A stretch of 64,000 nucleotides of DNA from Candidatus Saccharimonadota bacterium (GTDB lineage Bacteria > Patescibacteriota > Saccharimonadia > Saccharimonadales > Saccharimonadaceae): the NCBI GenBank assembly GCA_027450165.1, contig DAIDKE010000001.1, positions 70,373-134,372 of the forward strand. The letters run 5' to 3'. The translations under genes and the position numbers were made by a program. The notes below the pieces were generated by a model. That model ran no database searches. It saw only the letters and a program-made list of their open reading frames with translations, and had not been told where the DNA came from. Positions 2,868 through 42,285 of this stretch are shown here, in pieces. The stretch's first letter is position 1, and each line of letters opens with the position of its first letter.

Positions 2868-3440
2868 TTAACGGCGCTTGCGCGACGTTGAGCGAGACGG
2901 ACGACCCGCTAACTGAGCGTGACTAAAGCCAAGCGCAGCCAGTACAGCAAAGACCACCGCACCACTAAGGGCAACAACCGATGCCCACCAGGCGACAACC
3001 GCCATTGTATCGAAAGCATAGGCGTTCAAAAGTACGCCGCGCAGCATTTCGCCCTTAAAGACTGTGTTAACCTTGCCAGCAAGCGCTGTATCAGACGGGT
3101 TGGCTAGCGATTCGGCACTTAGCTCAGAGTAAGTCTTGCCACCGCCAATGTTCTGCAGGTGGAAAGCGATGTAATTGTTGGCGAAGACGCCAGCCTGGGC
3201 GCCATTGACCAGCTGCTGTCCAGCGTATGGCTTAATAGCCGACTGGTCATTAGTTGGTAGTGCTTTATAGGCTTCGTCGGTGGTCTTCGGGAAATAAATC
3301 TTCTCGGCCGACAGCTGGTCATAAACTTGAGTATGAATAAAATCGTGCGCATAAATTAGCCCGGCGGCAGCTAGCGCCAAGATCAATGCCACGGCAACGC
3401 CCAGGCTAGAAACGATTTTATCAATAGTGCTTCTCTTCAT
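2868..3440 (-). CDS. hypothetical membrane protein (N- and C-terminal TM helices)
   Basis: 190 aa. Hydrophobic segment SSLGVAVALILALAAAGLIY near the N-terminus and AVVAWWASVVALSGAVVFAVLAALGF near the C-terminus, with a basic tail. Confidence 0.5.
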   Translation of the reverse strand: MKRSTIDKIVSSLGVAVALILALAAAGLIYAHDFIHTQVYDQLSAEKIYFPKTTDEAYKALPTNDQSAIKPYAGQQLVNGAQAGVFANNYIAFHLQNIGGGKTYSELSAESLANPSDTALAGKVNTVFKGEMLRGVLLNAYAFDTMAVVAWWASVVALSGAVVFAVLAALGFSHAQLAGRPSRSTSRKRR

Positions 3441-3518
3441 TTGTAAGGTTCCTGCTTATATTTATTTTCACTAAGTTTAGCTATATGATACCAGATTTTT
3501 GCTATACTCAAAATATCT

Positions 3519-4541
3519 ATGGATATTCATGCTGACATTCCTTTAAAAAACTTCACCACGTTCAAATTAGGCGGACCGGCCAAGGCTTTTGCCGAGATTC
3601 ACAGCGCCCAAGACGTTGTGCAGGCCTACCAATATGCTAAGGCAAATCAGTTACCGTTCTTTGTGCTGGGTGGCGGCAGTAATGTAATTGCCCACGACGA
3701 AGGCTACACCGGTTTAATTATGCATATGCGCATCGCCGGTTTCGAAGTGGTGGCCGACGATAGTTTTTCGACAACCATTAAAATCGGCGCCGGTGAAGCT
3801 TGGGACAGCGTGGTGCAACGCGCCATCCAAATGCGACTGGCCGGCATCGAGGCTATGTCCGGCATTCCGGGGACCGCCGGTGCGGCGCCGGTTCAGAATG
3901 TTGGCGCTTATGGCCAAGAAATCGCCGACACCCTGCAATCAGTCGACGCTTATGACACGCAGACTGAAACTTTTGTTACCCTGACGTCCGAGCAATGCGG
4001 TTTTTCATATCGCAACAGCATTTTTCGCAGCAGCGATATGGGGCGCTATATTATCATCAGCATCAGTCTTCGTCTGAGTAAAAGCGCGCCGCAACCACCG
4101 TTTTACGATAGCCTGCAAAAGTACTTTGACGACCATAAAATTACAATTTACACACTCGAGATTGTCCGCAATGCAGTGCTTGATATTCGCACCAGCAAAC
4201 TGCCAGACCCGAAAATACTGCCAAATGCCGGTTCATTCTTTAAAAATGCCATTGTTGAAGATTGGCAACTAACCGATATTCGGGCTCAATACCCTAATTT
4301 GCCGCTGTTTGATATGGGCGACGGTCACTTTAAGGTGCCAACCGGCTGGCTAATCGAACAAGCTGGGTTTAAGGGCAAACTACTCCACGGCATACGCGTC
4401 AACGATAAAAATAGCCTGGTTTTGATTAACGAAGCTGCTACTGGCTATGGCGACTTAGCCGCAGCACGCGATGAAATTATCGGTGCGGTGCGCGATACCT
4501 TTCGCATTCAAATTGAACAAGAACCGCTTGAGATAAGTTAG
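3519..4541 (+). CDS. murB: UDP-N-acetylenolpyruvoylglucosamine reductase
   Basis: 340 aa. N-terminal FAD-binding signature NFTTFKLGGPAKAF...FFVLGGGSNV, SGIPGTAGAAPVQNVGAYG, and a C-terminal MurB domain (PNAGSFFKN, PTGWLIEQAGFKG). Confidence 0.9.
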   Translation: MDIHADIPLKNFTTFKLGGPAKAFAEIHSAQDVVQAYQYAKANQLPFFVLGGGSNVIAHDEGYTGLIMHMRIAGFEVVADDSFSTTIKIGAGEAWDSVVQRAIQMRLAGIEAMSGIPGTAGAAPVQNVGAYGQEIADTLQSVDAYDTQTETFVTLTSEQCGFSYRNSIFRSSDMGRYIIISISLRLSKSAPQPPFYDSLQKYFDDHKITIYTLEIVRNAVLDIRTSKLPDPKILPNAGSFFKNAIVEDWQLTDIRAQYPNLPLFDMGDGHFKVPTGWLIEQAGFKGKLLHGIRVNDKNSLVLINEAATGYGDLAAARDEIIGAVRDTFRIQIEQEPLEIS

Positions 4542-4577
4542 CTTGTCAAAACCTCAAAAAATCCTTATGCTAATAAC

Positions 4578-5147
4578 ATGGCAAAAGGGCGTGGGTTTAC
4601 AATTATTGAACTGCTGATTGTGATGGCGGTGATGGCTATTTTGCTGGTCATTGGCGTTGTCGATGTCAGTAGCAGCCAGGTTCACGCTCGCGACAACGAG
4701 CGTAAAGCTGATGTTGAAACTTTAGCCACGGCGCTTGAAACTTTTTATGACGGTGCCTCTGGGACTCAGGGTCAATACCGCTACCCATCGACTTGTATGA
4801 TTCAGCTGCTTCATGCTGGCATTTACACCACCCTGCCAGATATTGACCAGAGCGCCCTGATTTCGCCAAGCAACACCGATGGCCCAGATGACACGTCCTG
4901 CACGGACACCAACCCGCCAGCCCAAAGCGGCGTTGTGATCAGTGTTGTGGCCGCCACCAACACCACGCAAACAACTAGTGGCGTTACACCCCAGCCATCG
5001 GGTATAAACGATATCTACGTTTACCAGCCGCTAGCTGCCGACGGCTCGTTGTGCGTCAGTGGCAGTACCGAATGCGTCAAATATAATATCTATTATTACC
5101 AGGAATCGGACAGCTCCGTTCATATGGTTACGAGTCGACATCAATGA
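4578..5147 (+). CDS. prepilin-type (type IV pilin-like) minor pilin
   Basis: N-terminal class III signal MAKGRG|FTIIELLIVMAVMAILL. Overlaps the next prepilin gene by 4 nt. Confidence 0.75.
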   Translation: MAKGRGFTIIELLIVMAVMAILLVIGVVDVSSSQVHARDNERKADVETLATALETFYDGASGTQGQYRYPSTCMIQLLHAGIYTTLPDIDQSALISPSNTDGPDDTSCTDTNPPAQSGVVISVVAATNTTQTTSGVTPQPSGINDIYVYQPLAADGSLCVSGSTECVKYNIYYYQESDSSVHMVTSRHQ

Positions 5148-7252
5148 TAAATAAATTAAGCCTAGTTAAATCATCTCAGACCAAAGCGCACGGTTTTACT
5201 TTAGTTGAAATTCTGGTTATTGCACCGATTGTTATCTTGGTCATCGGCGCCTTTATTGCCGTTACACTGTCAATGACCGGCGAGGTTCTGACGACCCGCG
5301 CCAGCGACACCTTGCTATATTCGGTCCAAGATTCGCTTAATCGCATGTCTAGTGACATTAGGGACAGCAATAACTTCTTAGCCACCAATAACGTCACACT
5401 TACCGCTCCGCAAGGTATCGATAATGGCACTGGCAGTTTCGTGAACGTTGGCGGAACCAATGGCCCGGAATTGATTCTAGATTCGACCGCCACCACCACC
5501 AACCCAAACCTACTCACCAGTCAACCAGACTACATGAAGGATTCGCCAAATGCCTGCACCAGCTCTGCGATCCAGCAAAACGCCACATTGCATTACAACA
5601 TCGTCTATTTCGTTAACAACAATACCTTGTATAGGCGCACACTCGCCGATTCCAATTTCTTGACCGCCGGTTGTTCTATACCTTGGCAGCGCCCGAGTTG
5701 TGCCAACGGTCAAATCGGCGCCCTGTGTAAAACGAACGACGAGGTGCTACTTACGAATGTCAGCAGCATTAGTCTGCAGGTTGACTATTACACCAGCCCT
5801 AACGACAGCAGTCCGGTGGCCGGCGCGACATCTGGCACAAATGATGTCCGCAATACAGCCCTGCAAACAACTAATACCGCCCAAATACAGCTAAGCGCCA
5901 CAACAACAGTTGCCGGCCACGATTTCACGCGCAGCGGTACTGCCAAGGCCGTTCGCCAATCGACCATAGCAACGTCGCAAACACCAAACCAGCTACCGGG
6001 CTACAATACTGTGCCTTCGGCACCGGTCATAACCGCCGCCTATGATTCGACAAGCGGAGTGACCTTCAACTGGCCAATGGTTTCACCGGCCGCCACTTAC
6101 ACTATTCAATATCAGCTTAATGGCGGCAGCTGGACAACGGCCAGTAGCAACACGACTAACACCTACTACAATCTGCCAATGACCACTATCTATAATGGTG
6201 AGACTATTGCCGTACAGGTCACCGCCAGCACCCAAGCCGGGTCGTCAACGGCCGGAACTTCGACGATTACGACCCCGTTATGGAACCGCTTTGACTACAC
6301 AAATGGCTGGCTCGATTATCCCGGTTATGCACAAGGTGGATACACCAAGACATCAGCGGGGCTCATTGTCTTAAGAGGATTGGTTATGAATACACTGTCG
6401 TCTGGTGCTATATCGTCAGTCATAACTGTCCTGCCACCGGCCTTCCGTCCGTCAGCAAGGCTTATATTTTACACCGCAACAAACAACTCAAGTACAGGGA
6501 ACGCACAAGGCAGGGCCGACATCGACGCTAGTGGAAACGTCATACCCGTGACCGGTGATGCTGGATGGTTCTCTTTGGATACTGTTGCTTACTTGCCAGC
6601 ATCGGCTGCCATGACGGCAGTTAGTACTTTCTATAATGGCTGGACAAACTATGGCGCGGGGTACGCTCCCATGCAATACGCTACTGACGGCGCCGGGCGC
6701 ACAGTTATAGAAGGTCTAGTTAACGGCGGGACCTACACGGACGGTACCCTAATTGCCGCTCCTCCGTCTAGCTTATTGCCATCCGCATACCAGCATATAG
6801 GCGAAGTCGGAGCCGGCACTACTTCAGGAATAGGCGTTAACGTTAGCGGCAGTGGTATATTATCTAAAGGCTATGGATTCTCATCTCCCAGTTGGCTGTC
6901 GACCAACGCCGTATTTTACCCCGCCTCCTCGGCTGCGTCTTGGATAAATTTAACACTTCAAAACGGCTGGGTTTATTTAGGTAATGGATTTTCAACACCC
7001 CAATACATCAAGGGGTCGGACGGCATAGTCCACCTTAAGGGCCTTCTTAGCAGCGGCACAACCACGAGTGGAACCATTGTTACGACTCTACCTGCAGGGT
7101 ATAGACCAAGTCAGCGATTACTCTACGCGTGTCTTTCTGCCGGTGCATTTTGTAGATTTGATATCTTGCCAACCGGAGAGGTTGAAACTATAGGAACCGT
7201 TAGTAATGCCTGGTTATCGCTAGACAATATTCACTTTTTGGGCGAACAGTAG
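5144..7252 (+). CDS. large prepilin-type protein with FN3 domain and three C-terminal repeats (candidate pilus-tip adhesin)
   Basis: 702 aa. Prepilin signal KAHG|FTLVEILVIAPIV. FN3-like segment PSAPVITAAYDSTSGVTFNWPMV...YTIQYQLNGGSW. Three ~100-aa repeats carry NGW-x-(N)Y-G...G-x-V-x-L-x-GL...LP-x-(G/A)-(Y/F)-RPS. Confidence 0.7.
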   Translation: MINKLSLVKSSQTKAHGFTLVEILVIAPIVILVIGAFIAVTLSMTGEVLTTRASDTLLYSVQDSLNRMSSDIRDSNNFLATNNVTLTAPQGIDNGTGSFVNVGGTNGPELILDSTATTTNPNLLTSQPDYMKDSPNACTSSAIQQNATLHYNIVYFVNNNTLYRRTLADSNFLTAGCSIPWQRPSCANGQIGALCKTNDEVLLTNVSSISLQVDYYTSPNDSSPVAGATSGTNDVRNTALQTTNTAQIQLSATTTVAGHDFTRSGTAKAVRQSTIATSQTPNQLPGYNTVPSAPVITAAYDSTSGVTFNWPMVSPAATYTIQYQLNGGSWTTASSNTTNTYYNLPMTTIYNGETIAVQVTASTQAGSSTAGTSTITTPLWNRFDYTNGWLDYPGYAQGGYTKTSAGLIVLRGLVMNTLSSGAISSVITVLPPAFRPSARLIFYTATNNSSTGNAQGRADIDASGNVIPVTGDAGWFSLDTVAYLPASAAMTAVSTFYNGWTNYGAGYAPMQYATDGAGRTVIEGLVNGGTYTDGTLIAAPPSSLLPSAYQHIGEVGAGTTSGIGVNVSGSGILSKGYGFSSPSWLSTNAVFYPASSAASWINLTLQNGWVYLGNGFSTPQYIKGSDGIVHLKGLLSSGTTTSGTIVTTLPAGYRPSQRLLYACLSAGAFCRFDILPTGEVETIGTVSNAWLSLDNIHFLGEQ

Positions 7253-7339
7253 TGAGGCTTCTTGTAAAAAGCTTGTGTTTATAAAATTAACCTTGTATAT
7301 TTGAAGCATAGGTAAAAAATTAGGAGGGCAATAATAGAA

Positions 7340-7918
7340 ATGGTATTTGGCAAACTTAAAGATAGAAGGCAAGATAGCGGCTTCACACTGGTCGAGCTTT
7401 TGATCGTTATCGTGGTGATTGCTATTTTGGCGGCCATTACGATTGTTGCCTATGGTAATATTTCGGCCCGAGCTAAGACCACCCAGGGCGCAACCGCAAC
7501 AGCTAACACGGTCAAGGTCGCCGAGGCAATTAACGCCGACAACTCAAAATATCCTGATCTTTATTCAGACCTTACGACCGGTTCAACATCAACTAAATTG
7601 CCTAGCGGCCTTACCGTAGTCCAACTCAATAACTACGCGACCGTTATTCCAGCTACGGCCACAGCACTAAGCACTCTGTTTGCGAACAGTACCACCGTTT
7701 TTGGTAGCACGGCCCCTAGTAGTGGCAACACAGTTGTCGTAGTGCCGATCTGTAGTGCTGCTGGCGCAGTCCAGGGTGGTGCCGTTTACGGTTACGACTT
7801 TACATCTCCAAGCACCAAAGTAAGCGTTTCTTACTACGGCAGCGTGAATGGATCGACTACTGTTAGCACCGGTTCTTACCCGAAAACAGTTGACGCCACC
7901 GCTAGCACCCACTGTTAG
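7340..7918 (+). CDS. type IV pilin (major-pilin candidate, copy 1)
   Basis: 192 aa. Signal DSG|FTLVELLIVIVVIAILAAITIVAYG. AGGAGG SD upstream. C-terminal Cys pair (PICSAAG ... STHC). Confidence 0.8.
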   Translation: MVFGKLKDRRQDSGFTLVELLIVIVVIAILAAITIVAYGNISARAKTTQGATATANTVKVAEAINADNSKYPDLYSDLTTGSTSTKLPSGLTVVQLNNYATVIPATATALSTLFANSTTVFGSTAPSSGNTVVVVPICSAAGAVQGGAVYGYDFTSPSTKVSVSYYGSVNGSTTVSTGSYPKTVDATASTHC

Positions 7919-7938
7919 TAGTTAACTTGCATCATTAA

Positions 7939-7972
7939 TACGACCGCTCTCTTGTGGGCGGTCGTATTTTTT
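7939..7972 (+). terminator. rho-independent terminator after pilin copy 1
   Basis: acgaccgc-tctcttgtg-gcggtcgt followed by attttttg. Confidence 0.7.
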
Positions 7973-8044
7973 GGACTTGTGTTTAGAGTTGCAACCTTGT
8001 ATATTTATAGCATAAGCAAAAACAATTAGGGGGCAGAATAAGAT

Positions 8045-8581
8045 ATGATTAATAGTAAACTTAAAGGCCGAAGCAGCAGCGGTTTTACACTGGTTGAGCT
8101 TTTGATTGTTATCGTGGTGATTGCCATCTTGGCAGCCATTACAATCGTCGCCTACGGCAACATTAGCGCTCGCGCCAAGACCACCCAAGGTTCAACAGCC
8201 GCCGCCAACGTAGTCAAGGTTGCCGAAGCAATTAACGCCGACAACTCAGCTTACCCTATCAACACAGCAGCTTTCGCTGCCGGGTCAACATCAACCAAGT
8301 TGCCTAGCGGTATTACACTGCAAGACCCAACAGGCACCGCTCCAACGACCGGTAACCTGAACTCACTAGCGGCCTTTGCTGCCGCCCCATCAAGCGGTAA
8401 CACTGTCGCTGTCGCATTGGTTTGTAGTGCATCTGGCGTCGCCGCTGGTGGTGCCGTCTACTGGTACGACTTTAGTACCCCAAGCACCATTCACGTTACC
8501 TACTTCGGTAGTGTTGGTGCCACAACCACCGTCTCATCTGCGTATCCGACGTTGGTCAAATGGGTCACTGCCGGTTGTTAA
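8045..8581 (+). CDS. type IV pilin (major-pilin candidate, copy 2)
   Basis: 178 aa. The N-terminal ~60 aa are nearly identical to copy 1 (SSG|FTLVELLIVIVVIAILAAITIVAYGNISARAKTTQG). C-terminal Cys pair (LVCSASG ... TAGC). Confidence 0.8.
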   Translation: MINSKLKGRSSSGFTLVELLIVIVVIAILAAITIVAYGNISARAKTTQGSTAAANVVKVAEAINADNSAYPINTAAFAAGSTSTKLPSGITLQDPTGTAPTTGNLNSLAAFAAAPSSGNTVAVALVCSASGVAAGGAVYWYDFSTPSTIHVTYFGSVGATTTVSSAYPTLVKWVTAGC

Positions 8582-8597
8582 TCAACTAGCAAATAAA

Positions 8598-8629
8598 AAT
8601 ATGACCGTTTCGGCGGTCATATTTTATTT
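8598..8629. terminator. bidirectional terminator between pilin copy 2 and glyA
   Basis: aaaaatatgaccg-tttcg-gcggtcatattttattt: a hairpin flanked by A- and T-runs. Confidence 0.65.
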
Positions 8630-8651
8630 GCGTAGCTATTTACAGTTTAGG

Positions 8652-9929
8652 TTACTTATCTGACGGTAGCGGGAACTGCAGCGCAAACTGTTCAACTTCG
8701 CTGCGTAGTCGGCTGAGTTCGGCTTCATTGTCGCGATTATCAATCGCCTGCTTCATCCAGCTTGCTAACTGCGCCATATGCTCCTCGCGTAGACCGCGGG
8801 TGGTCACGGCTGGCGTGCCCAAACGAATGCCGCTCGGTTTAAATGGCGGTAGCGGATCGTCAGCCACCACATTGGCGTTCAAAGTTAGGCCAATCTTATC
8901 AAGCGCCTGCTCGACAACTTTGCCGTCAAGTCCAAAGCTCTTGTAAACATCGGCTAAAATCAAATGGTTACTTGTACCACCGGTAATCAGCTGAAAGCCC
9001 TGTTTTTGCATTTCATCGGCCAGCGCGGCCGCATTCTTAACAATTTGGGCGGCGTAATCTTTAAAGTCTGGCTGCAGAGCCTCGTAAAAGGCTACGGCCT
9101 TGGCGGCAATAACATGCATATGCGGACCGCCTTGCATACCAGGAAAGACCGCGCGATCAATCAAGGTTGGAATGTTTTCGAGAGTTTTCTCGGGCGCCTT
9201 GAGCGGATTGCCAACCACACCTTTACTCAAAATCAGGCCGCCACGTGGACCGCGCAAAGTTTTGTGGGTCGTGGTAGTCATAACGTGAAAACCATAATCG
9301 AGCGGGTTTTTGGCCACGCCACCGGCAATCAAGCCAGCAATATGTGCCATATCGGCCATCAATAAGGCTCCCACTTCTTGACCAATAGCGGCAAATTTGG
9401 AATAGTCTAGCTCGCGCGGATAAGCGCTAAAGCCAGCCAGAATAATCTTTGGCTTATGTTCAAGCGCTAGGCGGCGAAGTTCATCGTAGTCGATCTCGCC
9501 AGTTGAAATATCCTTCATCTTGTAGCGCACAAAGTTATACAGATGAGCGCTACGCGTTACTGGCGCCCCGTGGGTTAAGTGACCACCGTGCGACAAGTCC
9601 ATCGCTAACACCGTATCGCCCGGCTCTAGCCAGGCACTATAGACAGCCTCGTTGGCCGGCGCGCCGGAGTGCGGCTGCACATTGGCGTGGTCAGCGTGAA
9701 ACAGCTGCTTGGCGCGGTCGATCGCTAATTGTTCAACTTGGTCGGTAAACTCCTGGCCGCCATAATAGCGCCGACCCGGGTAACCTTCAGAGTATTTATT
9801 GGTGAGAACACTGCCAAGCGCCGTCAACACCTCGCGGCTGACATAATTTTCACTTGGAATAAGCTCCAAACCCTTGCGCTCGCGCTGTTCTTCACCGGCA
9901 ATCAAAGCCATAATTTGTTCGTCATTCAT
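8652..9929 (-). CDS. glyA: serine hydroxymethyltransferase
   Basis: 425 aa. LELIPSENYVS, YSEGYPGRRYYGG, and the PLP-lysine region TTTTHKTLRGPRGG. Confidence 0.95.
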   Translation of the reverse strand: MNDEQIMALIAGEEQRERKGLELIPSENYVSREVLTALGSVLTNKYSEGYPGRRYYGGQEFTDQVEQLAIDRAKQLFHADHANVQPHSGAPANEAVYSAWLEPGDTVLAMDLSHGGHLTHGAPVTRSAHLYNFVRYKMKDISTGEIDYDELRRLALEHKPKIILAGFSAYPRELDYSKFAAIGQEVGALLMADMAHIAGLIAGGVAKNPLDYGFHVMTTTTHKTLRGPRGGLILSKGVVGNPLKAPEKTLENIPTLIDRAVFPGMQGGPHMHVIAAKAVAFYEALQPDFKDYAAQIVKNAAALADEMQKQGFQLITGGTSNHLILADVYKSFGLDGKVVEQALDKIGLTLNANVVADDPLPPFKPSGIRLGTPAVTTRGLREEHMAQLASWMKQAIDNRDNEAELSRLRSEVEQFALQFPLPSDK

Positions 9930-23568: not shown

Positions 23569-24284
23569 GTCAGGTCATTACAATTCTGCAACTATATCCG
23601 CGCGACATGAACATTTACGGTGACCACGGTAACTTATTGGTATTAACGCGCCGGCTAGAGCGCTACGGCTACGAGCCAAAAGTAATTGAATATAATCCCG
23701 GCGACAACTTCCCGGCTAAAGTCGACCTAGTGGTTGGCGGCGGCGGCCAAGACAGCGGACAAAGCAAGATTCAAGATGATTTGTTAAAAATAGGCCCGCA
23801 ATTAAAAACCATGGCCGAAGCCGGCACGCCGATGTTAATGGTTTGCGGCCTGTATCAACTATTTGGCAAATTCTTTAAAACCAAAGACGGCGAAATCATC
23901 AAAGGCATAGGTGTTTTAGATATCGAAACCTACGGCAAATCGGAGCGCTTGATTGGTAATATAATCACCGAAAGCCCATTCTTTGGCCAAATTGTCGGTT
24001 ACGAAAATCATAGCGGCCAAACTTACCTCAGTGGCGACACGAAGCCTCTCGGCTTGGTTATGCTTGGCGCCGGTAATAACACCGACGACGGCCACGAGGG
24101 TGCTCGTTACAAAAACGTTATTGGCACTTATCTGCACGGATCGGTTTTACCAAAAAACCCTCAGCTGGCCGATTTTCTAATCAAACAAGCGATCATTAGT
24201 CGCTACGGTGAATTCACCAAGCCGCCGCTTGATGATTCATTGGCCGAAAAAGCCCGCGCCGCCGCCATGAAGCGCCCTCGCTAA
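23565..24284 (+). CDS. gatD: lipid II isoglutaminyl synthase, glutaminase subunit GatD (CobQ-type GATase)
   Basis: 239 aa. LYPRDMNIYGDHGN, nucleophile Cys in MVCGLYQLFG, His in TYLHGSVLPKNP. Confidence 0.85.
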   Translation: MSQVITILQLYPRDMNIYGDHGNLLVLTRRLERYGYEPKVIEYNPGDNFPAKVDLVVGGGGQDSGQSKIQDDLLKIGPQLKTMAEAGTPMLMVCGLYQLFGKFFKTKDGEIIKGIGVLDIETYGKSERLIGNIITESPFFGQIVGYENHSGQTYLSGDTKPLGLVMLGAGNNTDDGHEGARYKNVIGTYLHGSVLPKNPQLADFLIKQAIISRYGEFTKPPLDDSLAEKARAAAMKRPR

Positions 24285-33898: not shown

Positions 33899-35686
33899 AT
33901 GCGTATTTCCGATGATACAATCGAAAAACTACTAGGACGCGCCAAATTAGCGACGCCCGATCAAATTCAAACCCTTAAAGAAGAGGCCACTCGGCTTAAA
34001 TTGCCGCTCCAAGATATTGTCTTGCAGCAGCAAGTTGCTACCGATCGCGACCTGGTCAAGGCGTTTTCTGACTTTGCCCAAATTCCATTTGTTGAACTAG
34101 ACCCGCAAAACATATCTAGTGATGTCTTAAATCAAATCCCAGAGCGTATCGCCAGACAATATAACGCCGTTCTATTTAAGATTGACGACGATGGCACGCG
34201 CCACTTGGCCATGGAAGACCCAGATGACGTCCAGGCGGTCAACTTCTTGCAAAAAGAAGTCGGTATTAATACCAAAATCTACATTGCCACTCGTCAAAAC
34301 ATCCTTTCTGCCCTTGAGAACTACCGCGGCGACGTTAACCAAGAGCTCAGCAGCGTCGTTGAATCACAGGAAGAAGAAACTCCAGCCGCCAGTCAAGCGA
34401 CCGTTAGCGAGCAAGATATCACCGAAGATTCTCCGATTGCTCAAACCGTCAACTTATTACTTGAATACGCCATTCGCTCGCATGCCAGTGACGTACACAT
34501 TGAACCGCGTGAGGATTTTGTGCGGGTCCGTTATCGTATCGACGGTGTTTTGCGTGAAGTAAACCGCCTACCATCAAATGTGATTGGGCCGTTAATTAGT
34601 CGCATAAAGATTTTGGCCAACCTAAAAATTGACGAACACCGTGTGCCGCAAGACGGACGATTTAAGATTACCGTCGGCGGCAAGGCCTATGCCCTGCGTG
34701 TCAGCGTGATGCCGGTCACCGATGGCGAAAAGATTGCGATGCGTATCCTGGATGAGTCCAGCCAAGCTGTGACGCTTGAGCAGCTGGGCTACTGGGGTTA
34801 CTCGCTTAAAACCATCAAACAAACGATGGTCGAACCGAACGGTATGGTCCTGCTAACCGGTCCAACTGGTAGTGGTAAGTCGACCAGCTTGTTTAGTATT
34901 TTGTCGATCCTCAACACCCCAGAGGTCAACATTTCGACCATTGAAGACCCGGTTGAGTACAAGATCATCGGCGTCAACCAGACCCAGGCCAACACCAAAG
35001 CCGGCATGACCTTCGCCAACGGCCTGCGTGCGATGCTGCGTCAAGACCCGAACATTATTATGGTTGGTGAGATTCGCGACTCTGAAACTGCCGACTTGGC
35101 AATCCAGGCCGCTCTAACCGGACACATGGTCTTTTCGACCCTGCACACCAACAACGCCGCCGGATCACTGCCGCGTCTGCTAGATATGGGCATCGAGCCG
35201 TTCTTGATAGCTAGCACTGTTCGCTCAACCGTTGGTCAGCGCTTGGTCCGACGCTTGCACCGAGCGTCTCGACAGGCCTACAATCCGACGCCCGAAGAAC
35301 AGCAAGAGATCATCAAACTGTTTGGCTTCCCGACCGATTCCGCTTTCAAAATGATTCACGAACTTGAAAAACAAGCCGCAGACGCAGGTATTGGAGGCGA
35401 CACGCCGCTTAGTACCGATGAAAATGGCATCAAGACGCTTTATCACGCCGATTCCAACTTTAACGAAGACGAGGCTAGCGACGGCTTCAAAGGACGCGTC
35501 GGTATCTACGAGACTCTATATAATTCACCAACTATCCAAAAAATGATTATTGCGCGCGCCACTAGTGCCCAGCTCCAAGAGCAAGCCATCAGCGAAGGCA
35601 TGATGACGATGCTGACCGATGGTTTAGTGAAGGCTCTGCGCGGCGAGACAACGATCGAAGAAGTTCTAAGGGTTAGTCGAGAATAA
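33899..35686 (+). CDS. pilB: type IV pilus assembly ATPase PilB (GspE family)
   Basis: 595 aa. T2SSE N-terminal domain, Walker A LLTGPTGSGKSTS, Asp box, Walker B IIMVGEIRD, His box TGHMVFSTLHTN. Confidence 0.9.
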   Translation: MRISDDTIEKLLGRAKLATPDQIQTLKEEATRLKLPLQDIVLQQQVATDRDLVKAFSDFAQIPFVELDPQNISSDVLNQIPERIARQYNAVLFKIDDDGTRHLAMEDPDDVQAVNFLQKEVGINTKIYIATRQNILSALENYRGDVNQELSSVVESQEEETPAASQATVSEQDITEDSPIAQTVNLLLEYAIRSHASDVHIEPREDFVRVRYRIDGVLREVNRLPSNVIGPLISRIKILANLKIDEHRVPQDGRFKITVGGKAYALRVSVMPVTDGEKIAMRILDESSQAVTLEQLGYWGYSLKTIKQTMVEPNGMVLLTGPTGSGKSTSLFSILSILNTPEVNISTIEDPVEYKIIGVNQTQANTKAGMTFANGLRAMLRQDPNIIMVGEIRDSETADLAIQAALTGHMVFSTLHTNNAAGSLPRLLDMGIEPFLIASTVRSTVGQRLVRRLHRASRQAYNPTPEEQQEIIKLFGFPTDSAFKMIHELEKQAADAGIGGDTPLSTDENGIKTLYHADSNFNEDEASDGFKGRVGIYETLYNSPTIQKMIIARATSAQLQEQAISEGMMTMLTDGLVKALRGETTIEEVLRVSRE

Positions 35687-36918
35687 TGGCAAACTTCAGC
35701 TACATCGCGCTTGATAGTCGCCAGCAGCCAGTCAACGGCAAGCTTGACGAACCAGATCGCGCCAGTGCTATTGCGGCCCTTGTCAAAGAGGGTTTAAGGC
35801 CGATCAGCCTTCACGAGATCACACTCGGCAGTAAATTTAGTTTTGATTTTCGAAAATACTTCGGTTCGCGCAAAGTCAAAGCCGACAATCTAGTCATGAT
35901 GACTAGGCAGCTCAGCGCCATGATCGGTGCTGGCGTGCCGCTTTTGCGGGCGCTTAACTCGCTGCAAGCTCACTCCGAGGACCCAGCCCTGTCAAAAGTG
36001 TTGGTAGTCGTTATCAAGGATGTTCAAGGCGGTATGTCACTGGGTGATGCTCTATCCAGGCACCCCGAAACCTTCAACGACGTCTACGTCAACATGGTCC
36101 GGGCCGGAGAGTCGGCCGGTATTCTAGACGACATCTTAAAGCGCCTGGCCTACCAGCAGGAAAAAAACTCTTCAATCCTCAAAAAGGTTCGCGGCGCCAT
36201 GGCCTACCCGACAGTTATTTTTTCTGTGACAGTCCTCGCATTTTTCGGCTTAATGATCTTCATTATTCCGCAAATTGGCAAAATCCTAACCGATTTGGGC
36301 GGCCCTAACGCTCACCTTCCGGGCATTACGCTCGTCATGCTTGGCATTAGCCATATTGTTGTTAACTTTTGGTTTATTATCTTTCCGGCACTTGGTGGTG
36401 CAATCTATGGTGTAATTCACTATGTCCACACCCCGCGCGGCCGTAACCAGCTGCACCATTTGGTTCTAAAGATACCCGGAATTAGTCCAATTGTGCGCAA
36501 AGTCGCCGTAGCCAGGTTCGCACGAACCTTTTCGGCCCTGATGGGCGCCGGCGTTGCCGTTCTAGAGTGTCTGCATGTGACAGCGCGCGCTATTGGTAAT
36601 GTGGTTTACGAAGAAGCCCTTAACGACGCCGCCAAACAGGTAAAAAACGGTAAACAATTATCGAACGTAGTCGCCAATAACCCCTTATTCCCACCAATCG
36701 TGTCACAGATGCTAGCCGTTGGTGAGGAGACCGGACAGACCGACGCTGTATTGGTTAAGGTGGCCGACTTTTACGAAGAAGAAGTCGACAACGCCATCAA
36801 TAGTCTTAGCTCGATTATCGAGCCAGTTATCATTATTTTAATGGGTAGCATGGTCGGATTAATTGCCGCCAGCGTTATGCTGCCAATTGCCGAACTTTCG
36901 ACGAGTATTCAGCAGTAG
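35686..36918 (+). CDS. pilC: type IV pilus platform protein PilC (GspF family)
   Basis: 410 aa. Two T2SSF repeats (LTRQLSAMIGAGVPLLRAL and FARTFSALMGAGVAVLECL) and 3 TM segments. Confidence 0.9.
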   Translation: MANFSYIALDSRQQPVNGKLDEPDRASAIAALVKEGLRPISLHEITLGSKFSFDFRKYFGSRKVKADNLVMMTRQLSAMIGAGVPLLRALNSLQAHSEDPALSKVLVVVIKDVQGGMSLGDALSRHPETFNDVYVNMVRAGESAGILDDILKRLAYQQEKNSSILKKVRGAMAYPTVIFSVTVLAFFGLMIFIIPQIGKILTDLGGPNAHLPGITLVMLGISHIVVNFWFIIFPALGGAIYGVIHYVHTPRGRNQLHHLVLKIPGISPIVRKVAVARFARTFSALMGAGVAVLECLHVTARAIGNVVYEEALNDAAKQVKNGKQLSNVVANNPLFPPIVSQMLAVGEETGQTDAVLVKVADFYEEEVDNAINSLSSIIEPVIIILMGSMVGLIAASVMLPIAELSTSIQQ

Positions 36919-36973
36919 CAAAGCCATAATGCTCATGCTACAATAGACAGGAATACTCTATTTGTGGGCATCA

Positions 36974-38029
36974 ATGGCAAAATTATTTTATACAAATAAA
37001 CCGGTTATTGGCCTTGATATCAGTACGACTGGTCTGAAGGTTATGTCGATCGACCCCAAAAGGTGGTTAGTACTTGGTTATGGGTCAATTGACCTAGATC
37101 CAGGCAAACTCAAGGAATCGCTTGAGACCAATACCACTTACCTGGCCGATAATATTCGGTTGCTGATGACCGAAAAAATCGTCGGCTCGCTGAACAGTAG
37201 TCGCGTCGTCATTGGTGTTCCAACGGCACGTACTTTTTCGCGTACCTTCACCCTGCCCGTATCAGCCGAAAAGACTCTCAAAGACGCCGTTGAGCTCGAG
37301 GCCGATCAGTACATTCCGCTGCCTAGCGAGACTCTTTACATGGATCACCAAGTGATTGAGCGCGGCAAGGACAATCTGACTGTTTTGATGAGTGCCATCG
37401 CCCGAGTGGTGATTGATAATATTATGTCAGCAGCCGATTCAGCCGACTTGATGCCAGTTCTGATTGAGCCTAGCATTAGCTCGGTCGGCCGCGTTTTGAC
37501 CGCTACCGAGGAAGGCAACCTGCCAACCGTCATCGTCGACATCGGCCCCGCCAGCACTGACATTGCAATCCTCGACAAAGGCAGCATTCGGGTCACCGGT
37601 GGCGTCGCCATCGGCGGCAACACTTTCACGCTCGATATCGCCAAACATTTAGGCGTCACTCTTGAGAATGCCCATCAGTTAAAGGTTCTTAACGGATTGG
37701 CAGCCGGACCGCGCCAGCAAAAATTATCGGCAGCACTTGAGCCAAGCCTTGAGCGTATCTTGGCCGAGACAAAGAAAGTTATCCGCTACTACAACGAGCG
37801 TATCTCACAAGACCGTAAACTTGAGCAACTGTTAGTAGTCGGTAGCGGCAGCAACTTGCCAGGCATCGGTGAATACTTCACCAACAGCTTAGTTATCGCC
37901 GCCCGAGTCGCTAGTCCATGGCAAAAGCTAGATTTCGGTAAGCTGCAAGAGCCACCAAAACAATTCCGCTCGCGTTACATTACAGTTGCCGGCCTTGCCA
38001 GCGTATTGCCCGGGAGTATCTGGAAATGA
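36974..38029 (+). CDS. pilM: type IV pilus assembly protein PilM (actin-like ATPase fold)
   Basis: IGLDISTTGLKVM, VIVDIGPASTDIAIL, LLVVGSGSNLPGIGEYF. The ATG at 36974 is preferred over the TTG at 36962. Confidence 0.8.
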   Translation: MAKLFYTNKPVIGLDISTTGLKVMSIDPKRWLVLGYGSIDLDPGKLKESLETNTTYLADNIRLLMTEKIVGSLNSSRVVIGVPTARTFSRTFTLPVSAEKTLKDAVELEADQYIPLPSETLYMDHQVIERGKDNLTVLMSAIARVVIDNIMSAADSADLMPVLIEPSISSVGRVLTATEEGNLPTVIVDIGPASTDIAILDKGSIRVTGGVAIGGNTFTLDIAKHLGVTLENAHQLKVLNGLAAGPRQQKLSAALEPSLERILAETKKVIRYYNERISQDRKLEQLLVVGSGSNLPGIGEYFTNSLVIAARVASPWQKLDFGKLQEPPKQFRSRYITVAGLASVLPGSIWK

Positions 38030-38598
38030 TCAACCTTCTGCCTTACGAAGAAAAACGCCAGATTCGCGCCTCACGACTGAATTCAATTTTGATGCGGTAT
38101 TTCGTCATTCTGTGGATAGGCGGATTCTTTGTGGCAGCCGTTTTTGGAACCTCGTACGTCACCCTTACTATGACAAAGACCAGCGCCGAATCACTCCTAA
38201 GCCAGAACCAAAGCAAGGCCTCGGCCTACACGTCGGTTCAGCAGCAAGCCGCCCAAATCAACGCCAACATTGCCGCGGCACGCAACGTTTTGTCGCAGCA
38301 GATCCTATATAGCAAGGTGCTGACCGGCATAGCTCAGGCCACACCTCAAGGTGTAATAATCGACAAGCTTAGCCTATCGCCGAGCACGTTCGGTACCGCA
38401 ATGTCCCTGCAAGCTTACGCGCGCAATTCTGACGCCGCCTTGGCCCTTAAAAACGCTTACCAAAGCTCACCAATCTTTTCAAACGTCAGCATCCAGAGTC
38501 TATCCGGCGGCACTAGCGGCAGTGGTAGTAGCCCGGTTCCGAATTACCCTGTCAGCATCACCTTAAACGTAACCATAAATAAGTATGCAGCCATATGA
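38026..38598 (+). CDS. pilN: PilN-like pilus assembly protein
   Basis: 190 aa. N-terminal INLLPYEEKRQ motif typical of PilN, then a single TM. ATGA overlap with pilM. Confidence 0.7.
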   Translation: MINLLPYEEKRQIRASRLNSILMRYFVILWIGGFFVAAVFGTSYVTLTMTKTSAESLLSQNQSKASAYTSVQQQAAQINANIAAARNVLSQQILYSKVLTGIAQATPQGVIIDKLSLSPSTFGTAMSLQAYARNSDAALALKNAYQSSPIFSNVSIQSLSGGTSGSGSSPVPNYPVSITLNVTINKYAAI

Positions 38599-39155
38599 GA
38601 AGTAATAAAAAATCAATGAGAGCCACTAGTCTGCGTAATACCTTGATCTTCTTGGTTTTATTGACCGTGGCAATCGCCATAGGCAGCTTCTATTTCGGCA
38701 GCATTTGGATTCATGACTACGCCGTTAGCGTCAATCAAACCGTCGCGAGCGCTACAAACTCAAAAACCGACGACGCATCCCTAAAAAAGCTGCAGAGCGA
38801 TATTGCCCAACAGCAATCAATTATCACCAAAACCCAGGCGCTGTTTACCGACCAAACAAGCTATCAAACACAGGTAGTTCAAGACGTTAGCCGTTATGCT
38901 GCCCAGCTGGGCATGCCAACACCTAGCTTTTCGTTCCAGACGGCCGGCACCGCAGCCGGCGCCACCAAGACAGCACCGGGTAACACGGTGACTGTAGCCG
39001 TCCAAAGTCCAATCGCTTACACAACCCTGCTAAAGTTCATCATGGCGATTGAGCAAAACATTCCAAAATTGCAGATCACCGGTATCAGTATTGGTCGTGC
39101 AGATGCCGGACAGGTTACGACCGACTCATTAACGATTCAGGTATTTACGAGGTAA
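38595..39155 (+). CDS. pilO: PilO-like pilus assembly protein
   Basis: 186 aa, single N-terminal TM, coiled-coil region. The position after pilN and the 4-nt overlap support the call. Assignment rests on context. Confidence 0.5.
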   Translation: MRSNKKSMRATSLRNTLIFLVLLTVAIAIGSFYFGSIWIHDYAVSVNQTVASATNSKTDDASLKKLQSDIAQQQSIITKTQALFTDQTSYQTQVVQDVSRYAAQLGMPTPSFSFQTAGTAAGATKTAPGNTVTVAVQSPIAYTTLLKFIMAIEQNIPKLQITGISIGRADAGQVTTDSLTIQVFTR

Positions 39156-39481: not shown

Positions 39482-40069
39482 ATGCTAATTCTTGGTTCAC
39501 GTCTTAATTCTACCCCCATCATGAGTCTTCAGACTGGTGCGCGTTTGGCTGTAACCGCCCGACCAATTATTGACCCCGGCACGCTCAAAATCTACGCCTA
39601 TGAGCTCGCTGGGCCGCTTTTGACGCATACGCCATCGTACCTGCGCACCGAAGATGTGCGCGAGCTTGGCCAAATTGGCATGATTGTCGACAGCAGCGAT
39701 GAATTTGTTACACCCGAAGATATTATTAAATTGCGCGAACTGATTGACCTAGGCTTTCCGCTGGTCGGCATGAATGTGGTTGACGATTTCAAGCGCAAGC
39801 TCGGCAAGGTCGAGGATTACACCATCGACACCAAAAGCTTTATGGTACAGCAATTAAACGTCCGCCGTGGCTTTTTGCGCGGCATAACCGACACCGGACT
39901 ATTGATTCATCGGTCACAAATTGTCGAGATTAACGATGACGCAATTATCGTGCACACTAACGCTCGACAGGTCAAACAACGGGCAAGCGACGAATTGCGC
40001 CAGGCCTTTGTTAACCCATTTCGCAACGAACAGCCGTCAACCCAAGCCGACCCGACTAGTCGTCGTTAG
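39482..40069 (+). CDS. PRC-barrel-like domain protein
   Basis: 195 aa. The N-terminus LGSRLNSTPIMSLQTGARLAVTARPIIDPGTLKIYAYEL resembles PRC-barrel proteins, and a second similar segment occurs at residues ~95-150. Confidence 0.4.
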   Translation: MLILGSRLNSTPIMSLQTGARLAVTARPIIDPGTLKIYAYELAGPLLTHTPSYLRTEDVRELGQIGMIVDSSDEFVTPEDIIKLRELIDLGFPLVGMNVVDDFKRKLGKVEDYTIDTKSFMVQQLNVRRGFLRGITDTGLLIHRSQIVEINDDAIIVHTNARQVKQRASDELRQAFVNPFRNEQPSTQADPTSRR

Positions 40070-40700
40070 TATCTGAGGCTAGGGCCGTTCGCACATCATC
40101 ATAACTAAAGCCTTGGCGAACTAAATAGGCCATCAACTTCTGGTCATCGGCATAGCGATTGCGTTTCTTGGCTATTACCTTTTGCAGTTCTTCACCGTCG
40201 CTGCGGCCGGTTTCTTCCAGTAAACGATTGATAAGCGCCGACTCAACACCTTTGGCGCGCAGCTCGGCCTGCAGCTTACGACGGCTAATTCCTTTGATTT
40301 GATTGCGATTTTCAATCCAAAATTGGGCGAATTTTTCATCGTCAATATAGCCCTTGGCGCTTAGCCGATCAAAGACCCTGGCGGTTAGCCGCGGAGTCGC
40401 GCCTTTCTTGACATCGCCAGTCTTAGTTCGAGTGTCGCGCGTCTTACGGTATAGATAATCGCGAACTTCTTTGGTCGATCGCGGCCGCGCCAAGGCATAT
40501 TCCAGGGCGCGCGTATAAATCTTGCCGAACTGGCTTTCTTCTTCAAGGGCCGCCATTTCGACGTCGGTATACTCCCGGCCAACTTTAATACCCAAATCGC
40601 CAAGCTGTAAGATGTCCAAAGAAAAGCGAAACTTACCGTCAACCATAATGTTGACGCGGTCCTTATCACGAATTTGTGCGGTAATAGCGGTGATTTTCAT
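40056..40700 (-). CDS. recX: recombination regulator RecX
   Basis: 214 aa, immediately downstream of recA. Three-helix repeats (ALEYALARPRSTKEVRDYL, VFDRLSAKGYIDDEKFA, AYLVRQGFSYDDV). Confidence 0.8.
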   Translation of the reverse strand: MKITAITAQIRDKDRVNIMVDGKFRFSLDILQLGDLGIKVGREYTDVEMAALEEESQFGKIYTRALEYALARPRSTKEVRDYLYRKTRDTRTKTGDVKKGATPRLTARVFDRLSAKGYIDDEKFAQFWIENRNQIKGISRRKLQAELRAKGVESALINRLLEETGRSDGEELQKVIAKKRNRYADDQKLMAYLVRQGFSYDDVRTALASDTNDD

Positions 40701-40725
40701 AGATTAACCACCCAGCGAAAGTTAA

Positions 40726-41805
40726 CTAAGCTTCGGTCTCGTCGGCCGCAGGCTTAACTTCATCTTCTGTAGCTTCGGCGCTTACCTTGGCGCGAACTTT
40801 CTTGTCAATTTCATCAAGAACTTTTCGATTTTCAGCCAGATATTGTTTGGCGGCTTCACGGCCCTGGCCAATCTTACCGTCGTTGTAGTCAAACCAAGCA
40901 CCAGATTTACCGACAATACCGTGCTGAACGGCTAGATCAAGCACGTCACCAGTGCGCGAAATACCTTCGTTATACATGATGTCGAACTCAGCGGCGCGGA
41001 ATGGTGGCGCAATCTTGTTCTTCACCACCTTAACCTTTGTCCGGTTACCTATCACCTCTTCGCCAACCTTAATTTGGCCGGTGCGGCGAATGTCCATACG
41101 TACCGAGGCGTAAAACTTCAAAGCATTACCACCGGTGGTTGTCTCTGGATTGCCAAACATCACACCAATCTTCATACGGATCTGGTTAATGAAGACAACG
41201 ATCGTCTTGGACTTATTGATGATACCGGTCAGTTTACGTAGCGCCTGGCTCATCAAACGAGCCTGCAAGCCCATGTGGCTGTCGCCCATATCACCTTCGA
41301 TTTCAGCCTGCGGTACCAAGGCGGCGACTGAGTCAACCACCACGATATCAACAGCGTTCGAGCGTACCAATGTCTCAACGATCTCAAGAGCCTGCTCGCC
41401 GTTATCTGGCTGCGAAACCAGCAGATTATCGGTATCAACACCAACACGGCGCGCATAAGCTGGGTCAAGCGCGTGCTCGGCATCGATAAAGGCTGCTGTA
41501 CCGCCCTGCTTTTGAATCTCGGCGATCGCATGCAAGGTCAAAGTTGTTTTACCAGAACTCTCTGGACCATAAATTTCGATGATTCGGCCCTTTGGATAGC
41601 CTCCGCCCAACGCCAAATCGAGGCTCAAAGCCCCACTGCTCACTAACTCAACGTTCACCGTGGTTGTGTCACCTAAACGTCGAATTGCCCCATCCCCAAA
41701 TTGCTTATTAATTTGTTCTTGCGCCAAACCAAGAGCTTTAAGCTTGCCCTCAGCTGCGATTGGTTTAGCGGTCGTGTCAGGTGTCCCTGCTTTTTTGGAT
41801 GGCAT
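40726..41805 (-). CDS. recA: recombinase RecA
   Basis: 359 aa. [30 protein letters not shown], and the L1/L2 regions ([19 protein letters not shown]). Confidence 0.97.
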
Positions 41806-41895: not shown

Positions 41896-42285
41896 ATGAA
41901 GCAAAAAGGCTTTACTGTTATTGAGTTGTTGTTTGTCGTGGTGCTGCTTGCCGGTGCCAGTATTTTGTTTTTTGTTCAAAAAAATAATATCCAAACCGCC
42001 GCTGCCGACAATCAGCGCAAGACGGCCATTAACGCGATCTACTACTCGCTTGAAGAGGTATATTACCCGGCCCACAAAGCCTACCCGCAAACCGTCAACG
42101 AAAAAGTCTTGCCATCAGTTGACCCTAGCTTATTTACCGACCCTAACGGCAAAAAGATTGGCGACGGCCAAAGCAACTATAGCTATAAACCAACCAACTG
42201 CACCGACGGCCAGTGCCAAAGCTACACCTTATCGACGACACTGCAAAACGAAGCCGACTACGTTAAGACAAATCGCAGCCACTAA
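41896..42285 (+). CDS. prepilin-type (type IV pilin-like) protein
   Basis: 129 aa. Signal MKQKG|FTVIELLFVVVLLAGASILF. Cys pair (TNCTDGQC). Confidence 0.7.
   Translation: MKQKGFTVIELLFVVVLLAGASILFFVQKNNIQTAAADNQRKTAINAIYYSLEEVYYPAHKAYPQTVNEKVLPSVDPSLFTDPNGKKIGDGQSNYSYKPTNCTDGQCQSYTLSTTLQNEADYVKTNRSH

Follow-up and report, generated by a model that had tools for sequence, protein, structure and literature searches.

A modular type IV pilin of Saccharibacteria with a C-terminal triplet related to phage tail proteins, a candidate host adhesin

A four-gene pilin cluster and its 702-residue member

The window analysed here is a stretch of 64,000 nucleotides from a genome of Candidatus Saccharimonadota (assembly GCA_027450165.1, contig DAIDKE010000001.1). 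Four pilin genes adjoin at positions 4578-8581, between murB and glyA, and one of them is the subject of our analysis: an open reading frame (ORF) starting with ATG at 5144..7252, which encodes a modular type IV pilin of 702 amino acids (aa) supported by its orthologues and by an AlphaFold2 model. We use "X-pilin" as a working name for this protein. From its N-terminus to its C-terminus, X-pilin presents a prepilin leader, a pilin module, a flexible linker, an FN3 domain and three related repeats that are homologous to phage tail proteins. An earlier note on this DNA had singled out the same gene as a candidate for a host adhesin at the tip of a pilus. The pilin genes, the murA gene and the pil machinery genes of the window described below lie on the forward strand.

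The first gene 3' of murB (4578..5147) encodes a small pilin of 189 aa, which is recognized by the prepilin models N_methyl (E-value 4.4e-6) and TIGR02532 (E 3e-6). Its TGA overlaps the ATG of X-pilin within the sequence ATGA at 5144-5147, and the small pilin is likely the partner minor pilin of X-pilin. Downstream of X-pilin lie two probable major pilins of 192 aa (7340..7918; N_methyl E 8.5e-9), with an AGGAGG ribosome-binding site upstream, and 178 aa (8045..8581; N_methyl E 1.7e-7). These two pilins are paralogues that are 62% identical and nearly the same at their N-termini.

The leader peptide of X-pilin spans residues 1-17 and ends with Gly17 (5144..5194), as read from the sequence and from the conservation of the motif. 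The N-terminus reads MINKLSLVKSSQTKAHG|FTLVEILVIAPIV..., with G at -1, F at +1 and E at +5. This presents all the elements of a class III signal, namely a leader ending in Gly, a hydrophobic stretch and a Glu at +5 (MINKLSLVKSSQTKAHG|FTLVEILVIAPIVILVIGAFIAV), and cleavage by a prepilin peptidase is predicted between G17 and F18. In an alignment of 48 X-pilin orthologues, positions G17, F18, T19 and E22 show a conservation of at least 90%, with A27-P28 being invariant. The following alpha1 helix (residues 18-75, 5195..5368) carries the hydrophobic alpha1N with E22 at +5 and A27-P28, and constitutes the most conserved segment of the protein. The globular pilin head (residues 76-272, 5369..5959) contains four conserved cysteines at positions 138, 177, 186 and 195.

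We modelled the full protein with AlphaFold2 on the basis of the 48-sequence alignment and obtained a mean predicted local distance difference test (pLDDT) of 87.8. The model presents, in this order, a disordered leader (residues 1-20), a helix (residues 20-74), a beta-sheet head extending to residue ~270, the linker, the FN3 domain and three beta-domains. The predicted fold of the N-terminal part is the lollipop fold of pilins, with the helix followed by beta strands at residues 110-270 (pLDDT 80-94). The linker (residues 273-289, 5960..6010) is the junction between modules and its pLDDT falls below 50 at residues 274-285. It is followed by the FN3 spacer domain at residues ~290-376 (6011..6271). 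The family profile of this domain matched FN3con, titin and the FN3 of a glucanase in the PDB with E-values of 1e-6 to 1e-8, and the predicted structure matched titin Fn3-90 using Foldseek (template modelling score normalized by the target, TMt, 0.70; root-mean-square deviation, rmsd, 2.6). Pfam did not report fn3 for the single X-pilin sequence and returned Tissue_fac alone (E 0.0027).

The earlier note had described a genuine prepilin signal, an overlap with the preceding minor pilin gene and an FN3-like module at about 6013..6277, and had suggested predicting the structure of the protein. All of these features are present, the cleavage context is retained in the homologues, and the prediction proved confident. 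With a pilin module, a short linker, and an FN3 domain and repeats that are not specific to type IV pili (T4P), X-pilin is a modular pilin in the sense of Raynaud et al. (2021).

Three C-terminal repeats and their relatives in phage tails

The remainder of the protein consists of three repeats, R1 (residues 377-488, 6272..6607), R2 (residues 489-595, 6608..6928) and R3 (residues 596-702, 6929..7249), supported by BLASTP and by an alignment of units. Their mutual relationship is significant, with E-values of 1e-7 to 1e-12 and identities of 28-34% in pairwise BLASTP comparisons. R2 is the most divergent repeat and has neither the RxD nor the SLD motif, and R3 gives the best match to a phage family (phrog_13022, whose best stretch covers residues 595-702). 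The repeat unit of ~105 aa is absent elsewhere in the window, and Pfam assigned no family to the residues of the triplet. Because tandem matches of FN3 dominated the Foldseek search of the full-length model against the PDB, we modelled residues 377-702 separately. These 326 residues reached a pLDDT of 91.2 and a predicted template modelling score (pTM) of 0.90, which suggests that the three repeats form one rigid body and not beads on a string.

The unit is found in a very large family of proteins. An exhaustive profile search across 1.84 billion representative proteins identified 23,434 proteins with the unit at E <= 1e-3. The counts for the unit given here are based on this search; homologue searches with the N-terminal module and with the unit profile returned mainly proteins close to the query in length and were used to define architectures only, not counts. 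Among the best 145 of the 23,434 proteins, 128 possess 3, 6, 9, 12, 15, 18 or 21 copies of the unit. Multi-copy proteins present three abutting units followed by a spacer of 15-200 aa; in P0174, for instance, the gaps between successive units are 1, -2, 42, 0, 1, 43, 2, 1, 43 and so on. The triplet, therefore, is a recurring unit, and it is also found fused to the N-termini of unrelated pilins (P0188, P0198, P0232, P0251 and P0302).

Two other groups of proteins were noted in this family. Giant proteins of 2,300-6,500 aa (P0173-P0187, P0194, P0195 and P0202) contain 9-33 copies of the unit, arranged as triplets with spacers of ~15-45 aa. [quoted passage not shown] The second group (P0205, P0259, P0266, P0315 and P0238) comprises proteins of ~1,000-1,070 aa with six copies of the unit, or two triplets. 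The first three of these start with MPxxKYW..., a start that we take to resemble that of actinophage minor tail proteins.

The relation of the repeats to phage tail proteins was examined with profiles of phage protein families. In PHROGs, phrog_13022 matches the repeats in three stretches (E 8.1e-27), and further matches were found to phrog_1798, 26792, 14029 and 5339 (E 3.5e-16 to 4.3e-9), of which phrog_5339 is annotated as "virion structural protein" (E 2.6e-11). By these profiles, the repeats are members of an unnamed family of C-terminal domains of phage tail proteins (phrog_13022 / 1798 / 26792 / 5339 / 14029). A tblastn search of 50,697 phage genomes placed the unit at the very C-terminal end of distal tail proteins. 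The unit is carried by gp16 of the Geobacillus phage PK3.5, a putative tail fibre with a Prophage_tail (Tal) N-terminus whose gene follows that of the distal tail protein, and C-terminally by the tail protein gp55 of the Streptococcus phage Dp-1, whose gene follows that of a host-range protein. The C-terminus of the tail protein of MS1 was also matched.

The complete triplet is present in the Microbacterium phages A3Wally and Big4, in the gene following two minor tail protein genes. A3Wally gp101 is colinear with all three repeats of X-pilin (E 2e-23, 28% identity). The second unit of A3Wally was best recognized by the hidden Markov model (HMM) specific to R2 and its third unit by the HMM specific to R3. 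This agreement suggests that R1, R2 and R3 were passed on together, by inheritance or by transfer. A search of viral contigs with patterns derived from the single X-pilin sequence yielded no confirmed relative.

Structural comparisons gave a consistent picture. The minor tail protein of the Microbacterium phage Truong (A0A6M3SZL4) superposes on the whole triplet over 358 columns (E 1.6e-19; template modelling score normalized by the query, TMq, 0.88; rmsd 2.4). In Truong's protein, A3Wally gp101 and Big4 gp90, all three repeats R1, R2 and R3 follow one another as in X-pilin. These phage proteins have an N-terminal tail attachment region where X-pilin has a pilin, and their annotations read hypothetical or minor tail protein. 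Single units are matched by the structures of minor tail proteins from Streptomyces, Arthrobacter, Bacillus, Staphylococcus and Listeria phages. Among PDB structures, Foldseek paired single units with gp15 of the Listeria phage PSA (6r5w) and the protein of the lactococcal phage TP901-1 (3da0) at a probability of 1.0 (TMt 0.47-0.51, rmsd 2.9-3.5), with the receptor-binding protein (RBP) of phage p2 at a probability of 0.9-0.97, and with a podophage tail-needle protein. When the unit profile was compared to PDB sequences, the Pa223 tail needle was matched at E 0.0058. The repeats thus present the beta-barrel or beta-sandwich fold of RBP heads, which comprises ~100 residues.

These results agree with what the earlier note had stated of this region: three divergent copies of a ~100-aa unit, a resemblance to tail-fibre and minor-tail proteins, and a likeness to receptor-binding domains. 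The core motifs that it had listed (NGW, LKGL, LPxGYRP and WxSLD) correspond to conserved columns in our alignment of 32 units. Overall, the homology of the repeats to phage tail proteins is firm, and the repeats are tied to the experimentally defined receptor-binding heads at the level of the fold only.

The receptor-binding heads of PSA, TP901-1 and p2 are homotrimeric (PMC7291167). Like the units of X-pilin, the heads of these siphophages of Gram-positive bacteria (PSA gp15, 6r5w; TP901-1, 3da0; p2, 1zru/2bsd/2wzp) are C-terminal, distal beta-barrels of ~100 aa with a threefold working unit. In contrast, the siphophage heads are homotrimers that sit on a neck or stem docked to the baseplate, whereas X-pilin possesses three diverged copies on one chain and no neck or stem. 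X-pilin is therefore not a homotrimer assembled through a stem: it is a single chain whose units abut with gaps of 0-1 aa. Taken together, a pTM of 0.90, the fact that the structural relatives are homotrimers and the occurrence of the unit in multiples of three suggest that the three repeats may constitute a single-chain, pseudo-trimeric head, which would be the most economical reading. Because a pilin enters the filament as one chain, a pseudo-trimer would explain why three copies are found on it.

Module exchange at the murB-glyA locus and the pilus machinery

X-pilin is widespread in Saccharibacteria. We identified ~94 full-length orthologue clusters of 663-751 aa with 32-68% identity and a common architecture, and their sources name Candidatus Saccharibacteria. 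The relatives of X-pilin in the databases are named only "hypothetical protein" or bear generic automatic pilin names. The order of the genes is conserved: murB, a small pilin, X-pilin, one to three major-type pilins, glyA in convergent orientation and an HTH-murA gene. At the related loci, a pilin of 134-189 aa lies upstream of X-pilin with 0-2 genes between them; at locus L009, the gene after murB encodes 436 aa.

In other lineages, the gene at the same position retains the pilin module (39-51% identity) and possesses a different effector module or none. The effector is FN3 with FG-GAP in P0098 (locus L008, 630 aa), Gly_rich_2 in P0100 (L009, 584 aa), a Laminin_G_3 / sialidase-type lectin in P0111 (L010, 501 aa) and an NHL/SBBP propeller in P0136 (502 aa); P0124 (L011, 289 aa) has no effector module. 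The homology of these relatives to X-pilin stops at residues 268-281, or reaches residues 310-326 where the FN3 domain is common to both. The end of the homology coincides with the disordered linker of X-pilin, and modules have thus been swapped on a conserved carrier at a syntenic locus.

Additional genes are found between the small pilin and X-pilin at several loci (L009, 4077-6937; L010, 5911-7014; L002, 9016-9999; L008, 5973-7001). They encode Laminin_G_3 proteins (327-342 aa), a Gly_rich_2 protein (367 aa), an F5_F8_type_C protein (517 aa) and a 436-aa protein without match. The 327-aa Laminin_G_3 protein of L002 itself has a prepilin motif (N_methyl E 3.8e-4), which indicates that the cassette can hold several modular pilins. 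We also observed that the assembly GCA_040384025.1 contains the murB-glyA pilin locus twice, as L002 and L011 (JAWVHG010000008.1 and JAWVHG010000032.1, contigs of 759 kb and 414 kb). The flanks are the same at both loci, but one of the two X-pilins has 694 aa and carries the triplet, and the second has 289 aa and no module. This bin probably mixes two related genomes, and the two forms of X-pilin constitute a natural example of a difference in module between close relatives.

The surroundings of the cluster present two further features. The MurA protein (EPSP_synthase fold, ~510 aa) has an N-terminal XRE-type helix-turn-helix (HTH) domain; its gene lies at 10003-11544 in the window and adjoins glyA at all Saccharibacteria loci examined (L001, 7317-8861; L002, 15294-16760; L008, 11408-12940). 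It is unusual for a peptidoglycan enzyme to be fused to a DNA-binding domain. The last pilin gene (end at 8581) and glyA (8652) converge, and a perfect hairpin of 12 bp lies between their ends at 8596-8625; it is likely a bidirectional terminator. In a scan of positions 3400-8800 for promoters and terminators, the counts were at chance level and this hairpin alone looked real.

The machinery of a type IV pilus is encoded elsewhere in the window, at 33899..39155. It comprises pilB, pilC, pilM, pilN and a pilO-like ORF (Pfam T2SSE, T2SSF, PilM_2 and PilN), with pilBCMN spanning 33899-38598 and a PRC-barrel gene in the same cluster. Motifs of pilT and pilD were not found in the window, which contains a single T2SSE Walker motif. 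This pilBCMNO cluster is the probable assembly system for the pilins of the murB-glyA locus. Beside it lie recX and recA on the reverse strand (40056..41805; Pfam RecX and RecA) and a lone pilin gene next to recA (41896..42285) with the prepilin motif MKQKG|FTVIELL.

This organization can be compared to that of Nanosynbacter lyticus TM7x, whose second T4P locus (T4P-2) contains pilB2, pilC2, pilM2N2O2, recAX and one pilin and has no retraction ATPase, and whose T4P-2 pilins pilA2, pilX2, pilW2, pilV2 and pilZ2 form a separate cluster ~20 genes away (Grossman et al. 2025, PMC12206443). Deletion of the major pilin gene pilA2 or of the large minor pilin gene pilX2 in TM7x roughly halved the binding to the host (PMC12206443). 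By Pfam content and gene order, the layout of the machinery in the window is that of the host-binding T4P-2: recX and recA are a synteny marker common to both, and the lone pilin takes the position that the single pilin has in the TM7x locus. By synteny, X-pilin and its cluster correspond in position to PilX2 and its cluster, with a different effector module. Like PilX2 and PilX1 of TM7x, X-pilin is a large minor pilin whose C-terminal domain is expanded, and it is encoded in a pilin cluster ~20 genes from a pilB-pilC-pilMNO-recAX locus that lacks pilT. It differs from both in its canonical motif, since no PilD signal was predicted for PilX2 and PilX1 by the authors (PMC12206443).

Three other ORFs of the window were noted. 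An orphan pilin gene at 24744-25112 (MKIYKQRRATG|FTLVELILVIAV...) is located downstream of the paired genes murT/gatD (22297-24284), at a great distance from either pilin cluster. A 587-aa protein encoded on the reverse strand (45865-47631) contains two stretches of Lamin Tail Domain (LTD, E 9e-25) and may be another surface protein. Finally, a second ORF of 702 aa (29050-31158, reverse strand) is unrelated to X-pilin: it encodes the anaerobic ribonucleotide reductase NrdD with an ATP-cone and is followed by the gene of a radical-SAM activase (28364-29053).

A candidate host adhesin

We consider it fairly probable that X-pilin, a modular type IV pilin, functions as a host adhesin. Judged by the sources named for the orthologues, the organism is a Saccharibacterium, and the framing of X-pilin as a protein of an epibiont therefore fits. 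Once cleaved between G17 and F18, X-pilin would be inserted by its alpha1 helix and small pilin head into a pilus made of the two neighbouring major-type pilins, which would be assembled by the pilBCMNO machinery 27 kb away. X-pilin would most probably sit at the tip, beside the translationally coupled 189-aa pilin, because an appendage of 430 residues cannot pack into the body of the filament. The linker and the FN3 spacer would hold out the effector, three tandem beta-barrels of ~105 aa. The phage heads work as homotrimers but the pilin is a single chain; in our proposal, its three repeats come together as one pseudo-threefold head. By binding a glycopolymer of the cell envelope of the host, presumably an actinobacterium, this head would tether the Saccharibacterium to the host cell. 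The murB-glyA pilin cluster would represent a host-recognition cassette, in which the carrier is kept and the effector is exchanged at the linker.

Proteins of this general kind are known. In Streptococcus sanguinis, the modular pilins PilB (vWA module) and PilC (lectin module) are proven adhesins (Raynaud et al. 2021, PMC8179133). Like X-pilin, they start with a class III signal and a small pilin module, which a short flexible linker joins to a bulky module that is not T4P-specific; this module is predicted to be displayed at the tip and to lend adhesion to the filament. In contrast, the effector of X-pilin is an FN3 domain with a triplet resembling phage RBP heads. Modular pilins are widespread and include examples from candidate-phyla bacteria (PMC8179133). 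The triplet has no Pfam family, and the InterPro-based survey of that study could therefore not have listed it. A more distant analogy is found in the PilY1/PilC proteins of type IVa pili and in the Kil Tad pilus of Myxococcus, for which interchangeable tips have been proposed to mediate prey recognition (PMC12075869). In concept, as proposed here for X-pilin, a variable binding domain at the tip recognizes the target cell and is exchanged for different targets. However, PilY1, whose hallmark is a C-terminal beta-propeller, does not belong to the pilins, and the Kil tips are multi-protein complexes of minor pilins in a Tad system. Homology to X-pilin is not expected. Neither Pfam nor the AlphaFold2 model revealed a propeller domain in X-pilin, and its likeness to PilY1/PilC is functional only.

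The case for an adhesin is strengthened by the swapping of modules, by the T4P-2-like layout of the machinery and by the faster divergence of the triplet. The earlier note had suggested comparing the variability of the repeat region among strains. Among close relatives, the triplet is 56-66% identical against 75-82% for the pilin head and FN3, and in P0004 the triplet is 24-45% identical against 59-76% for the pilin head and FN3. The triplet indeed diverged faster than its carrier at this scale, but it is not hypervariable across distant orthologues, where all domains look alike.

This last observation weighs against the adhesin interpretation, and so do several others. We infer, and do not observe, the cleavage by a peptidase, the location at the tip, the geometry of a pseudo-trimer, the glycan or host ligand and the adhesin role itself; the pseudo-threefold packing is deduced from the model's pTM of 0.90, from the direct abutment of the units and from their occurrence in multiples of three. 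X-pilin falls below the threshold of Pfam N_methyl PF07963 (E 0.69, 10 bits against a cut-off of 21.2) and TIGR02532 gave it no listed match, unlike the three neighbouring pilins (189, 192 and 178 aa), which pass the cut-offs of the prepilin HMMs. The low N_methyl score is probably due to the invariant Ala27-Pro28 within the helix. A prepilin peptidase (A24 motif or pilD) was not found within the window, and X-pilin is linked to T4P-2 by synteny only. In the PDB, receptor-binding heads that have been defined by experiment are matched moderately (E 2e-3 to 3e-2, TM ~0.5), and the unit profile matched the sequence of PSA gp15 weakly (E 0.2, profile positions 7-102). Finally, we know of no phage protein similar in sequence to the triplet for which a receptor has been demonstrated.

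A binding module presented on a pilus could also be directed at something other than a host bacterium, such as a polysaccharide of the environment or of a biofilm, an abiotic surface, animal or plant glycans, or other epibionts in the course of aggregation. The fold class of the repeats is that of a generic glycan-binding beta-barrel, the locus carries general lectin modules in the relatives (Laminin_G_3, F5_F8_type_C and sialidase-type lectin), and two publications tie the T4P of Saccharibacteria to the interaction with epithelial cells as well (PMC13194787, PMC12157433). However, the closest relatives of the full module are tail proteins of phages of Actinobacteria and Firmicutes, which recognize bacterial envelopes, and the X-pilin family is found in environmental Saccharibacteria of many habitats. 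The precedent of PilX2 in TM7x, moreover, is one of binding to a host bacterium (PMC12206443). A target other than a host seems rather unlikely to us.

It is also conceivable, and in our view quite unlikely, that X-pilin is mainly a minor pilin involved in assembly, a primer of the GspK, PilX or PilY1 type whose C-terminal domains form a structural cap. The fixed position of its gene beside that of the small minor pilin and their translational coupling are consistent with such a function, as is the existence of relatives that consist of the pilin module alone (~280 aa), which indicates that the carrier has a role without any effector. A priming role has also been raised for the PilX proteins by the authors of the TM7x study (PMC12206443). 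However, priming leaves unexplained why lectin-like and RBP-like modules have been exchanged repeatedly on one carrier, why the triplet diverges faster than that carrier and why the triplet is fused to unrelated pilins and to phage tails. The roles of primer and adhesin are, in addition, not mutually exclusive.

The remaining alternative, that the ORF is a remnant of a prophage tail or a mis-called fusion and not a functional pilin, could be suspected from the homology of the C-terminal 326 aa to phage tail proteins but is effectively refuted by conservation and synteny: ~94 full-length orthologues have the same architecture and the same chromosomal neighbours (murB, glyA and murA) at identities down to 33%. 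The absence of phage genes nearby, the intact frame, conserved prepilin motif and confident full-length model, and the lack of relatives in the viral contigs searched with X-pilin patterns also speak against it. A competence (Com) pseudopilin was considered and rejected as well. It is suggested by JGI automatic names and by the nearby recA, but nothing in the module suggests DNA binding and the TM7x study found T4P-2 to be dispensable for competence (PMC12206443). The "Pam" pilus described for CPR bacteria in a preprint is an unrelated, chaperone-usher-like system.

How ultrasmall CPR epibionts find and hold their hosts is a central question, for which PilX2 of TM7x has so far been the sole pilus adhesin candidate with genetic support. 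As a candidate host adhesin, X-pilin would represent a second and widespread architecture (~94 orthologue clusters). Modular pilins and pilus adhesins are already known as a kind; the architecture of X-pilin and the very large family of its triplet are unannotated, and in full-text searches we came across no paper linking the pilins of Saccharibacteria or Patescibacteria to RBP or tail-fibre domains of phages. The proposal lends itself to experiments: residues 377-702 are compact and confidently modelled, which makes them expressible and testable for binding, and the exchange of the effector between lineages at the murB-glyA locus implies that the type of module can be correlated with the taxon of the host.

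The relation between the triplet and phage tails suggests how such a protein might have evolved. A trimeric phage head may have become a single chain such that a monomeric pilin can carry it, as the rule of multiples of three would support. More tentatively, Saccharibacteria and the phages of Gram-positive hosts may draw on a common pool of receptor-binding heads. The triplet of X-pilin would then read the same wall glycopolymer as actinophages, the module attached at the linker would set the host range of the epibiont, and epibionts and phages would compete for, and co-select, the same receptors; we regard this extension as possible but doubtful. Independently of this extension, X-pilin as a candidate adhesin would link the attachment of epibionts to the adsorption of phages in evolution, a connection of relevance for receptor-driven co-evolution in Actinobacteria and for the engineering of host range in cultivable Saccharibacteria.

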